Shown piece after piece: positions 558-28,513 of a stretch of DNA of 32,256 nucleotides. Both the position numbers and the translations under genes were made by a program. Numbering within the stretch: position 1 is the first letter of the stretch; each line of letters starts with the position of its first letter. The notes beneath the pieces were generated by a model that worked only from the letters and a program-made list of their open reading frames with translations, searched no databases and had not been told where the DNA came from. This DNA comes from a virus (Duplodnaviria > Heunggongvirae > Uroviricota > Caudoviricetes), in IMG/VR virus record IMGVR_UViG_3300028585_000002, positions 79,337 to 111,592 of that record, one strand, 5' to 3'.

Positions 558-1387
558 CCACCTACACCATCGACAAGCGCTATGAGACATCCGTCGAGCG
601 CACCCCGCGCGTGCTCGCGCTGGCCGAAGCATTCGGCCTGGGCCTGGACGACAAGGAATTCGTCGTGTTCGACAACCTGAAGCTGGACATCGAGCAGGGC
701 GACGTGGTCTACGTCACCGGCCAGTCCGGCGCCGGCAAGAGCACCGTGCTGCGCGAGCTGCAGCGCCAGATGGCCGACGAAGGTCTGGTCGTCGCCGACA
801 TCGACAAGGTCGTGCTGGAAGACAAGCCGCTGACCGACCAGATCGGCGCCACGCAGGAGCAGGGCCTGGCTTACCTGTCGCTGGCCGGCATCAACGACGC
901 CTACCTCTACCTGCGCAAGCCCGCCGAGCTGAGCGACGGCCAGCGCTACCGCTTCCGCCTGGCCAAGCTGATCGAGTCCGGCGCCAAGGTCTGGGTCGCC
1001 GACGAGTTCCTGGCCGTCCTGGATCGCACCGCGGCCAAGATCATCGCCTACACGCTGCAGAAGACCGCGCGCCAGGTCGGCGCAACGCTGCTCGTGGCCA
1101 CCACCCACACGGACATGGTCGCCGACCTGGCGCCGAGCCTCTACATCGAAAAACGCTACCGGGAAAAGATCCTGGTCGAGCGCACTGCGCGGCCAGCGCA
1201 CGAGCAGCGTGTGTACGACGAAAAGCATGAGCTGGACGAGCGCCTGGGCAAGCTGCTGGCCTTCTTCAGCAACCCGATCTTCGCCGGCCTGGATCCGGTC
1301 GAGCAAACCCGCCTGCGCGCGCAAGCCAGCGCGATGGGCCTCTATTCCGAAACCCTTGGCGAACGCATCGCCGCCTTCAAGAGCTGA
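554..1387 (+). CDS. Soluble ABC-family ATPase (COG2401-like ABC half) with an appended C-terminal helical domain
   Basis: Walker A GQSGAGKST, signature LSDGQ, Walker B VWVADEF, H-switch ATTH. No transmembrane segments and no permease gene nearby. The last ~60 aa (HEQRVYDEKHELDERLGKL...LGERIAAF) resemble a small standalone phage protein family. Confidence 0.92.
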   Translation: MTTYTIDKRYETSVERTPRVLALAEAFGLGLDDKEFVVFDNLKLDIEQGDVVYVTGQSGAGKSTVLRELQRQMADEGLVVADIDKVVLEDKPLTDQIGATQEQGLAYLSLAGINDAYLYLRKPAELSDGQRYRFRLAKLIESGAKVWVADEFLAVLDRTAAKIIAYTLQKTARQVGATLLVATTHTDMVADLAPSLYIEKRYREKILVERTARPAHEQRVYDEKHELDERLGKLLAFFSNPIFAGLDPVEQTRLRAQASAMGLYSETLGERIAAFKS

Positions 1388-1390
1388 ATC

Positions 1391-1717
1391 ATGCATAACA
1401 CCCACAACACCGCCTTCTTCGACGACGTGCTCAAGGCCTCCTACGCCGAGCCTGTCGTGGTCATGTTCCACGCCAGCTGGTGCGGCCCCTGCAAGTCGAT
1501 GAAGCCGTTGGTCGAGCGCCTGGCCACCGACATCGGCTTCACCCTGGTCGGCGTCGACGCCGGCACCGAGCGCCAGCTGGCCGCCAGCGAGAGCGTGCGC
1601 GCCGTGCCGACCCTGATCGTCTACAAGGACGGCAAAGCGGTCGGCAGCCCGTCCGCCGGCGGCAAGACCGAGACCGCGCTGCGCACCTTCCTGGCTACCG
1701 CAGGTGTCTGGGCATGA
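1391..1717 (+). CDS. Thioredoxin
   Basis: WCGPC active site, VPT cis-Pro motif (AVPTLIVYKDGK), 108 aa. Confidence 0.95.
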   Translation: MHNTHNTAFFDDVLKASYAEPVVVMFHASWCGPCKSMKPLVERLATDIGFTLVGVDAGTERQLAASESVRAVPTLIVYKDGKAVGSPSAGGKTETALRTFLATAGVWA

Positions 1718-1788
1718 CCGCGTTCGAATGCTTCACCCTGGCCATGGTTGGTGCCGGCGCGCTGTTGATCTGGAAGTGGCCGGCATGA
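1714..1788 (+). CDS. 24-aa single-helix hydrophobic micropeptide (MTAFECFTLAMVGAGALLIWKWPA)
   Basis: Exactly fills the gap between thioredoxin and the GNAT-like gene, with ATGA overlaps at both ends (1714-1717 and 1785-1788). Confidence 0.55.
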   Translation: MTAFECFTLAMVGAGALLIWKWPA

Positions 1789-2759
1789 TCATCCTGGACA
1801 ACGAGGACATCCTGGTCGAGCGCCGCGCGCGCCCGGCCGGCCACCGTCTGTCGCTCCTGGACCGCATCTACATCGAGCGCGGCACCAAGGAGGACTGGGA
1901 AGTGCTGCACGAGCTGCACTACAAGGCCGACAAGACCGGTATCGGCCCGCGCTACTGGCGTTGCATGCTCGACGGCCAGGTGATCGGCGTGGGCGTCATG
2001 ACGGTGCCGAAGATGCTGCTCTCTGGCCGCAACGAGGCGATGAAGTACATGCGCCCGAACGTGAATGGCCGGGACACGCGCCTGGTCAACCGCACGCGCG
2101 CCATGTGGCTCAACGCCCAGGCCTGCACGAACAGCCGCCTGGTGCTCGACACGATGTACCGCGGCGCCGGCATCGCCTACCGCATGCAGAACCTGATGAT
2201 GCGCATGACCGGCTGCCGGTTCGTCGAGTTCCAGTCGTCGATGAGCAAATTCAATCCGTTCGCGGCCAAAGCCGGCATGCGCTTTACGAAACCGAAGCGC
2301 TCGGCCAACTACGCGAAGGGCCTGGCCTTCTTCCAGCGCTGGTTCGTGTCCGTCCCGATGGACTACGTGGGCATCAAGGAAGAGATCGACGCCATGTCGC
2401 CGGCGGTGCAGAAGAAATGCATCGCCGAGATGCGCAAGTTCTACTACACCTGCTCATCCATGGAAAAGTCGGGCGATAACCGCGCCAACGGCACCAGTCG
2501 GGTCGATGGCATGGAAGTGGGCTACTTGCTCAAGAGCCTGCAGCAGCTGGTCCTGGCCAGCCCGCTCTATGGCATCTTCGAAAACCCCGACCATGGCATC
2601 GAGCTGCCCGCGCGCCTGCCGCTGTTCGCGTTCGACAACCAGAGCCTGACCGAACCGCTCGACTTGGCGCGCGCACGCGAGCAAATGGGCACCATCCCAG
2701 CCCCCAAATTGACCGACACCCCGGAAGACGAAGATGAACCTGACGACGAAACAGATTGA
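1785..2759 (+). CDS. GNAT-fold acetyltransferase-like protein (partner of the ABC ATPase), 324 aa
   Basis: Acetyl-CoA-binding motif A-like SRLVLDTMYRGAGIAYRM and downstream MSKFNPFAAKAGMRF. Start placed at ATG 1785 (ATGA overlap) rather than 1704. Confidence 0.75.
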   Translation: MIILDNEDILVERRARPAGHRLSLLDRIYIERGTKEDWEVLHELHYKADKTGIGPRYWRCMLDGQVIGVGVMTVPKMLLSGRNEAMKYMRPNVNGRDTRLVNRTRAMWLNAQACTNSRLVLDTMYRGAGIAYRMQNLMMRMTGCRFVEFQSSMSKFNPFAAKAGMRFTKPKRSANYAKGLAFFQRWFVSVPMDYVGIKEEIDAMSPAVQKKCIAEMRKFYYTCSSMEKSGDNRANGTSRVDGMEVGYLLKSLQQLVLASPLYGIFENPDHGIELPARLPLFAFDNQSLTEPLDLARAREQMGTIPAPKLTDTPEDEDEPDDETD

Positions 2760-3057
2760 ACTGCTGCGCGTGATCGGCGCCGGCAACGGCCCGGCCCAGC
2801 CATGCGACCTGGACGAGATCCTGGACCGGGTCCGCTACGAGACCACCAAGGCGAGCCTGCAGTTCTCGATCCGCGCCCTGGTGGCTCACGGCCTGGTCGA
2901 GAAGCTGCCGACGGAGAAGCGGCGCGGGCGCCAGCGCCGGCCGATCACCGTAACCGAGCTGGGCCGCGGCTACGCCGGTGGATCCGGTCCCGGCGCGCGC
3001 GTGTCCGTCACTCCCGAGGAGGACGAGATGGACGAAATCGTGGAATTGATGGAGTAG
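2734..3057 (+). CDS. Winged helix-turn-helix DNA-binding protein
   Basis: LTTKQIELL helix, SLQFSIRALVAHGLVEK recognition helix and strand, basic wing RRGRQRR and ITVTELGR, typical of wHTH (MarR/PadR/LexA-N-like) folds. Confidence 0.75.
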   Translation: MNLTTKQIELLRVIGAGNGPAQPCDLDEILDRVRYETTKASLQFSIRALVAHGLVEKLPTEKRRGRQRRPITVTELGRGYAGGSGPGARVSVTPEEDEMDEIVELME

Positions 3058-3295: not shown

Positions 3296-3334
3296 CACCG
3301 GTGACTTGACACGGAACGGCAAAAGGATTAAAGT
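3291..3334 (+). promoter_or_regulatory. Operator copy 2 plus sigma70-like promoter for terS/terL
   Basis: TAAGTCACCGGTGACTTG at 3291-3308; TTGACA 3306-3311, 17 bp, TAAAGT 3329-3334. Confidence 0.85.
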
Positions 3335-3354
3335 CTGCCCGGTATTGTTCCTCC

Positions 3355-3385
3355 ACGGGCGCCTCTCCCTGCGCCCGTTTTTTTT
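3355..3385 (+). terminator. Intrinsic terminator in the terS leader
   Basis: Stem ACGGGCGC (3355-3362) / GCGCCCGT (3371-3378), 8-nt loop, run of 8 T (3378-3385). Confidence 0.8.
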
Positions 3386-3404
3386 GCCTGAAGGAATTAC
3401 AGTA

Positions 3405-4058
3405 GTGACAGCAGCCGCGAAGACCACGAAAAACCGCCTCACTGTGAAGCAGTGGGCCGAAGCCGAAGCCCTCTGGGAGAGCGGCACGGTCACGTACGAA
3501 GATTTGATGAGCAAGTTCGGCCTGGCCCAGTCCTCGTTCGAACGGCACTTCAAGAAGAAGGGCATCGTCAAGGGCGCCAAAGCCGCGGCGATCAAGGCCA
3601 AGGTCGACGAGAAGCTGGCTGTCGCCGCGATCGACGAGGCAACGATCATCGCCGCCCGGATCAAGGAGACCAAAGAGCAGCACTACACGATGTCGGCCAA
3701 CCTGTCGAAGCTGGCCTATTCGGAGATCCTGCAGGCGAAGAAGGACGGCCAGCCCGTCGCTGTCGCCATGAACAACCTCAAGGCGCTGGATAAGGCGATG
3801 GACGTGCTGGCCAAGGCCCGCACCGAGCGCTACGCCATCCTGGGCCTGGACCGTCCGGACGCGATCGACCCTGACGAGATGCCGGAGCTGGTCATTTCCG
3901 AGCTGACCGCTGAGCAGATCGAGGAGATGCGCAAGCGCGATGAAGCGGACCTGGACGCGCTGCCTGCCGGCGCCAACCAGAACGTTGTGCAGCCTGACGA
4001 GGAAGACCTCGACGATGGCGATGGCGACGACGAAAACGCGGTTGTCGAGGAATCTTGA
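3405..4058 (+). CDS. terS: Terminase small subunit
   Basis: N-terminal HTH (WAEAEALWESG...EDLMSKFG..SSFERHFKK), helical middle, acidic tail, immediately upstream of and overlapping terL. GTG start at 3405 with AAGGA 9 nt upstream. Confidence 0.8.
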   Translation: MTAAAKTTKNRLTVKQWAEAEALWESGTVTYEDLMSKFGLAQSSFERHFKKKGIVKGAKAAAIKAKVDEKLAVAAIDEATIIAARIKETKEQHYTMSANLSKLAYSEILQAKKDGQPVAVAMNNLKALDKAMDVLAKARTERYAILGLDRPDAIDPDEMPELVISELTAEQIEEMRKRDEADLDALPAGANQNVVQPDEEDLDDGDGDDENAVVEES

Positions 4059-26404: not shown

Positions 26405-28513
26405 ATGCCACAGCTTAAGCAGACCTGTGCCGTCACGAACGGCAGCCAAATCGTTACGGTCAAAGGCGCCAACCTGTCGACCCGCGTCAAGAAGAACCAC
26501 GTCTTCATGCTGGAGGGCGCTCTGGTGCCCTACACGGTGGCGATGGATCCAACCTACGACGGCACCAACACCACCGTCACCCTGACCGGCGCGTACGTCG
26601 GCCCGACCGATCTGGCCGCCAAGGGCGTGTTCGCGGTTGACACGACCTACCCGGACATGATCCCGACGATCTCACAGGGCGACGTGGGCACGGCGGCAGT
26701 CTTCACTTACGCCATGTACCGCATCCAGGAGCTGATCCACGCGGTCGACCCGAGCGGCCTGGCGCAGTACGTCGACTATTGGAAGGACGTGAAGAAATGG
26801 AATGCTGACGTAAGTGCGTCCGAGCAGCACGTCGTCGCCCTGGAGGCCGCGGCCGAAGCGCACCGCGCCGACGCAGCCGCATCCAAGGCGGCAGCTGCAG
26901 CATCCGAGATGAAGGCCCTGGCCAGCGAGACGGCTGCCGACCAATCGTCCGACGCCGCCGCATTGTCCGAGCTGCACGCCGGCATGAGTCAGTACGCTGC
27001 CGCCGACAGTGAAGCAGCGGCCCTCGCCAGCCAGAATGCAGCTAAGGCATCGCAAGACGCTGCCGCCGGCAGCCAGGCGGCCGCACTCGCATCCCAGGAC
27101 GCCGCGAAGCTGTCCGAAACTGAGGCCAAAACGTCGGAAGGCGCCGCCCGCACCAGCGAGGGCAAGGCCCTGGCCAGCGAACGTGCGGCCGCCGCATCCC
27201 AGGCTGCAGCCCTGGTATCCGAAAAGGCAGCAGACGACTCCGAAGCTGCGGCACTGGCCAGCGAGCGCGCGGCGGCCACCTCGGAGCAGCATGCCAAGGC
27301 GTCCGAGACCGCGGCTGCTGCATCCCAGCGCGCAGCGGCCACGTCGGAGCAGAACGCCAGCGCCAGCGAGACCAATGCCGCCGAGTCGGAAGCGAACGCC
27401 CTGGCCTACAAGCTGGCAGCCGAGCAGGCCACGATCGACGCGCCGGCCGTCCACGCCGACCGCATTGCTGCCGACGCCGCTGCAGCGGCTGCCGCCGCGT
27501 CCGAGGCCGCTGCCCTGGCCAGCCAGGACGCCGCAAGCTCCAGCGAGCGCAATGCGAAAGCCAGCGAGGTCAGCGCGACCCAGTCCGAAGCGAATGCTTT
27601 GGCGAGCAAGCGAGACGCCCTGAAGTCCCGTACCGATGCGCAAGACGCCCGCGACCTGTCGCTGGAATACCGCAACACCACGAAGGGCTACCTGGACGCT
27701 GCGCGCGACGCCACGGTCAACGCGGTTCAGGTGCGTGACGACCGCCTGGCGGCAGACGCTTCGGCAGCGGCCGCACGCACATCCGAAGTCAACGCCTTGG
27801 CCAGCGAGCACAATGCCGCAGCCAGCGCCGACTTCGCTGACCAGCGAGCCACCACCTCGGACGAACGAGCGATCTTCGCCGACCAGCGCGCGCACGACGC
27901 GAATGCCAGCGCCACTGCTGCCGCATCGAGCGAAGCTGCCGCTCAGGTGTCCGAAGAAGCGGCGCTGGCCAGCCAGGTCGCTGCTGAGCTTTCGCAGGGC
28001 GCCGCAAGCCAGTCCGAGAACGCTGCCGCCGAATCGGCGCGCCAGGCCAAGGCCAGCGAGATCGCGGCAGCGGCAAGTGAGCGCGCGGCAACCGCATCCG
28101 AGATCGGCGCCGCCGCATCGCAGGTCGCCGCCAAGGCAGCAGAGAACAAGTCCGACGCCTGGGCGAACACGGAGCAGGGCGTCGAGGTCGAACCCGGCCA
28201 GTATTCGGCAAAGCACTGGGCGCAGACCGCCGGCGCGCTCGCTGGTGGTGCGATGGCCTACATCGGCGTGTGGGACGCATCGGACGGCAAGTACCCACCG
28301 ACGCCGGCCAAGGGCCACTTCTACAAGATCAGCAAGGCTGGCCTGATCGACGGCACCGAGTACCAGGCGCTGGACATGATCATCTTCAGCGGCACGAGCT
28401 GGGACAAGATCGACAACACCGAGAACGAGTCGGCCCAGGCGATCGCGGACCTTGAGACGCGCATGATGGCGCAGCTGCGCGTGGTCAAAGCACTGGCAAT
28501 TCTGGGGCTTTGA
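26405..28513 (+). CDS. Side tail fibre-like protein with long Ala/Ser/Glu-rich coiled-coil repeats
   Basis: 702 aa; about aa 145-580 made of AAASE.AA..SE.NA repeats as in Stf-like fibres; KSDAWA...GQYSAKHWA and YIGVWDAS...YKIS motifs near the C-terminus. Confidence 0.8.
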   Translation: MPQLKQTCAVTNGSQIVTVKGANLSTRVKKNHVFMLEGALVPYTVAMDPTYDGTNTTVTLTGAYVGPTDLAAKGVFAVDTTYPDMIPTISQGDVGTAAVFTYAMYRIQELIHAVDPSGLAQYVDYWKDVKKWNADVSASEQHVVALEAAAEAHRADAAASKAAAAASEMKALASETAADQSSDAAALSELHAGMSQYAAADSEAAALASQNAAKASQDAAAGSQAAALASQDAAKLSETEAKTSEGAARTSEGKALASERAAAASQAAALVSEKAADDSEAAALASERAAATSEQHAKASETAAAASQRAAATSEQNASASETNAAESEANALAYKLAAEQATIDAPAVHADRIAADAAAAAAAASEAAALASQDAASSSERNAKASEVSATQSEANALASKRDALKSRTDAQDARDLSLEYRNTTKGYLDAARDATVNAVQVRDDRLAADASAAAARTSEVNALASEHNAAASADFADQRATTSDERAIFADQRAHDANASATAAASSEAAAQVSEEAALASQVAAELSQGAASQSENAAAESARQAKASEIAAAASERAATASEIGAAASQVAAKAAENKSDAWANTEQGVEVEPGQYSAKHWAQTAGALAGGAMAYIGVWDASDGKYPPTPAKGHFYKISKAGLIDGTEYQALDMIIFSGTSWDKIDNTENESAQAIADLETRMMAQLRVVKALAILGL

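Follow-up and report, generated by a model that had tools for sequence, protein, structure and literature searches.

The window, by which is meant the whole 32,256-nucleotide stretch of viral DNA analysed here (Caudoviricetes; IMG/VR record IMGVR_UViG_3300028585_000002, positions 79,337 to 111,592), carries near its left end a gene for an ABC-type ATPase and, beyond a thioredoxin gene and a very short open reading frame (ORF), a gene for a GNAT-fold protein. Each product is one half of a split COG2401-type ABC-GNAT protein. Probably they descend from an old fission in which the joint between the two domains was doubled, and the halves would still reassemble; the 15-nucleotide (nt) direct repeat ATCCTGGTCGAGCGC, which occurs once in each gene, would be a composite by-product of this history. 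The elements concerned are the following.

554-1387, + strand: ABC ATPase, 277 aa; Pfam ABC_tran and PF21825; phrog_293 and phrog_774
1169-1183, + strand: repeat copy 1; residues 206-210, ILVER, forming the final beta-strand of the ABC fold
1184-1390, + strand: linker (TARPAH), crAss001_48-like tail domain and stop codon, delimited by the blastn break against the relative L127
1391-1717, + strand: thioredoxin (CGPC); Pfam PF00085, E 3.6e-21
1714-1788, + strand: hydrophobic ORF of 24 aa, MTAFECFTLAMVGAGALLIWKWPA, read from the sequence
1785-2759, + strand: GNAT-fold protein, 324 aa; phrog_886, E 2.6e-133
1809-1823, + strand: repeat copy 2; residues 9-13, ILVER, which are collinear with the junction strand in the fused proteins

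The first protein is a soluble ABC-type ATPase. Its nucleotide-binding domain (NBD) core spans residues 1-210, with the Walker A, LSDGQ, Walker B and H-loop (ATTH) motifs at 56, 126, 146 and 182, respectively; the protein matches Pfam ABC_tran (E 3.9e-13) and only generic ABC models in NCBIfam, and the ABC motifs are invariant in the family alignment. The second protein has, by its predicted structure, a GNAT fold with a predicted acetyl-CoA-binding motif. From the N-terminus it consists of a strand with a linker (residues 1-24), the GNAT domain proper (about 25-170) and a C-terminal domain that is helical. Pfam and NCBIfam searches with this half gave no match, and the assignment comes from its AlphaFold2 (AF2) model (predicted local distance difference test score, pLDDT, 88.9), for which all 50 Foldseek matches listed in the PDB belong to the GNAT superfamily with probability 1.00, TmcA and phage Mu Mom among them, and cover the first ~170 residues. 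The half contains an R126-x-x-G129-x-A motif, in which R126 and G129 do not vary among the split and fused forms; a family profile reaches GNAT motif A in PDB sequences, and the protein atlas is concordant. The family to which the protein is assigned, phrog_886, bears the label "ABC transporter ATP-binding subunit", though it lacks a P-loop and is GNAT-folded; the name probably derives from the COG2401 label of fused relatives.

The fused form was found in an exhaustive search with the GNAT half, which gave 319 relatives, the best 150 of which were examined for architecture. Fifty-nine of these 150 are proteins of ~450-500 aa with an N-terminal ABC and a C-terminal GNAT domain, and every one of them matches both window proteins, the ABC with E values of ~1e-40 to 8e-63 and the GNAT half with values down to 8e-21. 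The fused homologues that had been anticipated from the sequence alone thus exist, in other viruses and in microbes, and are specifically related to both genes. Examples are P0098, from a prophage in a Planctomycetota metagenome-assembled genome, P0058, P0117 and P0054 (Nitrososphaerota), and several split homologues are named by JGI "ABC-type ATPase with predicted acetyltransferase domain", which is the COG2401 name. Two fused genes were inspected in their genomic setting; the first is part of a prophage, with ParB and terminase as neighbours, and the second belongs to a phage replication module. Some fused proteins (P0099, 1260 aa; P0062, 791 aa; P0054, 665 aa) bear extra domains, a family B DNA polymerase on the N-terminal side or a TFIIB repeat on the C-terminal side (a Nitrososphaerota cluster), and these additions hint at a nucleic-acid-related role. 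A further relative, P0037, is listed as a stand-alone GNAT of 262 aa; at its locus (L125:482-1450), where it directly follows a terminase-like gene, the frame runs upstream into an ABC remnant corresponding to residues 141-208 of the window ABC, and a fused gene that is truncated, or that was mis-called, is the probable explanation. The literature search turned up no papers on COG2401 or its long name.

How the two halves map onto the fused proteins is best seen at the junction. In an alignment of 53 fused junctions, one short strand and a proline-containing linker lie between the last hairpin turn of the ABC domain and the "SLL...IERGT" block with which the GNAT domain starts. The AF2 model of P0098 (pLDDT 92.6) has strands E203-207 and E213-217 at this place, followed by GNAT beta1 at 231-235, and repeat copy 1 aligns with the junction strand E213-217. 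Ordinary NBDs such as LolD align to about the ILVER strand, so this is natively the last strand of the ABC domain. In independent phmmer alignments, residue 207 of the ABC and residue 10 of the GNAT half are assigned to one and the same position in at least 10 fused proteins; taken alone this coincidence is weak, because the two strand copies of the window are nearly identical. The decisive point is the spacing, since the fused junction has room for only one strand, whereas the window has two. The motif therefore does lie at a domain boundary in both proteins, as the P0098 model, the GNAT model and the LolD alignment agree. In the window, in four named phages and in all informative metagenomic loci, the two domains are encoded by separate genes.

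The split forms as a group carry the strand twice. In consensus the ABC ends REK-IxIVR-APEGYK-stop and the GNAT half begins DNAD-ILIER-RxVPxxH-xLSLL; a looser pattern for the split clade is REK-IxI[VE]R at the ABC end and D-[IV]L[IV]ER-RxxP at the GNAT start. Both strands are kept in more than 45 metagenomic loci and in L010, in which the genes overlap by 4 nt and are free of cargo, and they are present, in the looser form, in the phages nickie, SSU5 and RHph_X66. Fused, split-adjacent (L010) and split-with-cargo forms all occur among the homologues. In a tree of the ABC domain rooted on generic ABC ATPases, 20 split ABCs form one clade (Shimodaira-Hasegawa-like approximate likelihood-ratio support, SH-aLRT, 99) that is nested among fused forms, and a single old fission is therefore the simplest and likely reading of the tree. 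When the ABC tail is compared with the GNAT head in 31 other loci, 1.9 of 10 residues agree within a genome and 2.0 of 10 between genomes. As the likeness within genomes is about that between genomes, there is no concerted evolution of the two strands, and the window is an outlier.

This outlier is the repeat itself. The exact 15-mer stands at 1169-1183 and 1809-1823, both on the + strand, and the window holds no third copy at one mismatch or fewer. Both copies begin with an in-frame ATC (codon 206 for the ABC, codon 9 for the GNAT half), and the encoded peptides, ILVERTARPA and ILVERRARPA, are alike in 9 of 10 residues. The likeness continues to 24 of 29 bases, made up of 15/15 and thereafter 9/14; of the four codons shared beyond the 15-mer, three have a different synonymous third base, so that identity does not extend over the whole segment. 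Removal of 1169-1808 would join ABC codon 205 to GNAT codon 9 in frame and give a protein of 521 aa (205 + 316). On the repeat and its frames, on this arithmetic and on the contents of the 640 bp (the extra C-terminal domain of the ABC, the thioredoxin and the 24-aa ORF), the sequence-only reading was right. As DNA alone, the repeat is unremarkable because the window holds 16 exact direct repeats of at least 15 nt, four of them within 1 kb. At the peptide level, the 9/10 match is unique in the window apart from an alanine-rich repeat protein; for a single window such a match is unusual, it would carry little weight in a scan of very many, and homology explains it here.

How the match was put together is seen in L127, a close relative (GNAT half 96% identical, DNA 93% identical) that came from the protein search; the metagenome scan gave none with both sites closer than L007 and L058. 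L127 has the same 15-mer at both sites, and its ABC ends ...KILVERPTTEGSKDA-stop. Blastn homology between the window and L127 ends exactly at 1183 and restarts at 1391; L127 thus lacks 1184-1390 only and keeps the thioredoxin, the micro-ORF and both 15-mers. Since L127 carries the 15-mer at both sites, ILVER at both predates the divergence of the two genomes, and since the homology breaks at 1183/1391, "TARPAH" belongs to a separately acquired tail-domain module. The 9/10 motif is accordingly composite, made up of an old pair of strands and of an in-frame domain fusion that came later and is unrelated to them, and the boundary at 1183 is simply the end of conserved ABC sequence. Nor is the DNA between the repeats present or absent as one unit, given that L127 lacks 1184-1390 alone and that the cargo varies among relatives.

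The tail domain (PF21825 crAss001_48, phrog_774) occupies ABC residues 214-273. A crAss001_48-like domain is fused in frame at the C-terminus of the ABC in three phages, namely in the window, in L007 (3272-3490) and in L058 (1843-2058), and the linkers before it read TARPAH, KTGLAPH and TERPAH, respectively. The domain, right behind the last ABC strand, is a recent gain or loss. By its ABC the window groups with L031, whereas its GNAT half is nearest to L007; a mosaic breakpoint within the ABC core was sought by blockwise nucleotide identity, which gave no clear breakpoint.

Whether the halves bind each other was approached with a complex model. The mark applied is reached by 58 of 80 solved complexes and by 2 of 110 mismatched pairs, and is rough here, as our own alignments were used. 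The ABC-GNAT pair scored 0.67 against 0.00 for the best of three controls; at least 82% of contacts agree between runs, and the partner pLDDT is at least 75. In the modelled interface, GNAT residues 3-24 face ABC residues 193-203 and 39-45, and GNAT residues 9-14 run antiparallel to ABC 194-200 with i+j of ~209. When the hairpin of the fused model is transferred (offset 7), the ABC's own strand would pair with i+j of ~406, and from these two sums GNAT I9-R13 comes to stand in the register of ABC I206-R210. The model thus lets the GNAT copy occupy the place expected for the ABC's own copy, the outcome that the sequence-only reading had proposed to look for, and it favours binding of the halves, most likely through the N-terminal strand of the GNAT half, although split-gene halves in general tend to pass this test. 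To our knowledge, no ABC-GNAT structure has been solved; when the PDB was searched by sequence and by fold with the GNAT half as query, stand-alone GNATs and TmcA were the only matches, the fused model itself not having been searched. A more elaborate, and improbable, version takes the doubled strand as an assembly switch, in which the free ABC would be closed by its own strand, and the GNAT copy, which in the model has the same partner strand and register, would displace that strand together with the attached crAss001_48-like domain. If true, this would couple complex formation to the release or repositioning of a third module.

Taken together, the probable course of events is as follows. The fused ancestor would have had a single last ABC strand and a short proline-containing linker joining the two domains, and it would have been split once, in an ancestor of the SSU5/nickie-like phage group, in such a way that both products kept the junction strand. 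The N-terminal strand of the GNAT half would dock on ABC residues 194-200, by which the halves reassemble, and the fission site would later have become a slot for accessory genes. In the lineage of the window, both strands may then have happened on ILVER with preferred codons, which yields 15 identical bases, and a later in-frame fusion of the crAss001_48-like domain behind the ABC strand would have brought "TARPA", which resembles the "RARPA" of the GNAT linker. The repeat is neither a recent duplication nor a demonstrated recombination device. The earlier proposal of an ancestral fusion split with a doubled junction thus holds in outline, while two of its parts fall: the 640 bp are not the splitting insert, as SSU5, nickie, the rhizobiophages and over 45 relatives from metagenomes have the split too, though their cargo is quite different, and the 15-mer is not the fossil of one duplication, as L127 has ILVER at both sites and TARPA belongs to a module that L127 lacks.

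Several observations weigh against this account. Of 60 shuffled proteomes, 2 (~3%) also give a 9/10 peptide match. Identical codons at all five shared residues have, from the codon usage of the window, P ~0.06, and the idea that codon bias alone forces the nucleotide identity was for this reason not fully upheld. The ABC tree is a quick search in which several nesting nodes have a support of only 80-84. The alignments behind the complex model held pieces of fused homologues, and the model returned no coordinates for the ABC's own strand. Over 5-10 residues, homology of the strands is more than sequence can prove, and the GNAT head could be an independent docking peptide; we also know of no family member with a known biochemical function. 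The last-named origin, in which the ABC keeps its last strand, the GNAT half has evolved a docking peptide of its own and the likeness is convergence or chance, is unlikely on balance. It would suit the mere ~2 of 10 residues shared in typical relatives, the stand-alone GNAT homologues that have no N-terminal strand (P0104, P0150, P0132) and the ease with which a five-residue amphipathic strand evolves, but the GNAT strand and linker are collinear with the fused junction, at equal spacing to the SLL...IERGT block, and distant stand-alone GNAT homologues also begin with a similar strand and linker. A strand in both halves, moreover, would need duplicated DNA, as a stop and restart cannot give both.

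Slightly less likely again is a short-patch gene conversion or micro-duplication that homogenised the strand segments in the common ancestor of the window and L127, the split itself being old. A small local conversion keeps this place because of the codon identity (15/15 bases, against ~6% by independent codon choice) and the shuffled-proteome match; the identity is also kept at both sites in two genomes that are 7% different, and the 9/10 of the window pair stands out against a maximum of 4/10 in the 31 other loci. Yet the identity ends abruptly, with the synonymous differences in the next shared codons, the "ARPA" part derives from a separate module, and no concerted evolution is seen across the family; unchanged 15-mers in both genomes are unsurprising (0.93^30 ~0.11), and about half of the exact repeats of this length in the window come from one palindromic motif. 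That the direct repeats are a working recombination substrate, which toggles between split-with-cargo and fused forms, is very improbable. They are direct and in frame, and an exchange between them would restore exactly the fused architecture found in nature, with its single junction strand; however, 15 bases are a short substrate, most relatives lack such identity, the best 120 near-length homologues (65-96% identity) are all of 289-339 aa and none is fused, and the predicted fused junction 32-mer is absent from IMG/VR. The toggle that the sequence-only reading had considered thus finds no deletion or fused allele among close relatives in protein searches or IMG/VR. A search for longer homologues of 568-2000 aa gave none, a range that is uninformative for a 521-aa fusion, which falls in the near-length search.

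The gap between the two genes is a cargo slot that gathers mobile and anti-defence genes, and not a single mobile unit. It measures from -4 to 1840 nt in relatives. Thioredoxin is the commonest cargo, with a tblastn match in most relatives' loci; other cargo comprises a GIY-YIG/NUMOD3 homing endonuclease (L008:2601-3155), a Tad2-like Thoeris anti-defence domain (L022:2728-3213), DUF2829 (L003:3094-3387) and ORFs of no assigned function. The 24-aa ORF of the window is coupled to its neighbours, its ATG overlapping the thioredoxin stop and its stop overlapping the GNAT ATG (ATGA at both ends), and its amino-acid sequence is conserved in L127, there with a GTG start.

The pair lies next to packaging genes. 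The phage record, which is complete, measures 111.6 kb and has direct terminal repeats; the window forms its final 32 kb, and beyond the pair it includes:

left end of the window: tail of a ParB-like gene, then two small ORFs, then the ABC ATPase
2734-3057: winged-helix protein (wHTH)
3306-4058: phrog_867, with the large terminase (TerL) next

The order of the module is helicase, ParB-like, ABC, cargo, GNAT, wHTH, phrog_867 and TerL, and the same module also occurs in Salmonella phage SSU5, Pseudomonas phage nickie, Rhizobium phage RHph_X66 and Stenotrophomonas phage ANB28. A search of the SSU5 and phage-plasmid literature found no paper on this gene pair. The host is likely betaproteobacterial, because close homologues of the GNAT half come from Herbaspirillum, Duganella, Undibacterium, Polaromonas and Cupriavidus records. 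Elsewhere in the window, a 17-nt palindrome, TAAGTCACCGGTGACTT, has eight copies at two mismatches or fewer (184, 3291, 5337, 7991, 9050, 12898, 19539 and 28515); these are mostly intergenic, are the source of about half of the exact 15-nt repeats, and look like a dispersed operator or regulatory site. A 702-aa ORF at 26405-28513, probably a fibre or tail protein, is built of many alanine-rich repeats (AAALASQ and variants) and is the sole other origin of 9/10 peptide matches in the window.

A gene pair that lies beside the packaging genes of SSU5-like phage-plasmids, nickie-like phages and rhizobiophages, and that has been labelled "ABC transporter", can now be read as a soluble ABC ATPase with a GNAT partner and as the two-gene form of an uncharacterised fused family. 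The locus does not reveal a new recombination mechanism; its interest lies in a clean natural gene fission with the joint kept in both products, which offers a testable model of reassembly by strand docking, and in a fission site that has turned into a landing pad for accessory genes such as thioredoxin, a Tad2-like anti-defence domain and a homing endonuclease.

Among known systems, the fused COG2401-type proteins are the closest, as both halves are significantly similar to them and share the ABC-then-GNAT order, the ABC motifs, the R-x-x-G-x-A motif and the junction strand with its linker; like the window pair, they occur in phage contexts beside ParB and terminase. Unlike them, the window has two genes parted by cargo, the junction strand twice and an extra crAss001_48-like domain on the ABC. 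The phrog_293/phrog_886 pairs of SSU5 (SSU5_127/129), nickie (gp157/gp155) and RHph_X66 are orthologous split pairs with 40-58% identity in the same module, but in these pairs the two strands are dissimilar, and the ABCs, of 209-212 aa, end just past the strand.

Another phage enzyme gene broken in two by inserted DNA is nrdA of Aeromonas phage Aeh1, which is split by the homing endonuclease gene mobE and in which short tails at the break are needed for rebuilding the enzyme (PMC3045599). By analogy, and with a GIY-YIG endonuclease gene in the slot of the relative L008, it is plausible that insertion of a homing endonuclease caused the original fission of the ABC-GNAT gene. The Aeh1 tails are new sequence from the insertion (PMC3045599), whereas the ends in the window look like two copies of a native strand, whose assembly is modelled only.

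The pair also resembles the tRNA(Met) cytidine acetyltransferase TmcA (PDB 2zpa), in which an NTPase is coupled to a GNAT domain and whose GNAT domain is among the fold matches. The ATPase of TmcA is helicase-like and not of the ABC type, and past the GNAT fold there is no sequence relationship. TmcA offers a working analogy for ATP-driven acetyl transfer, and the window pair may be regarded as a putative ATP-driven acetyltransferase encoded next to packaging genes.

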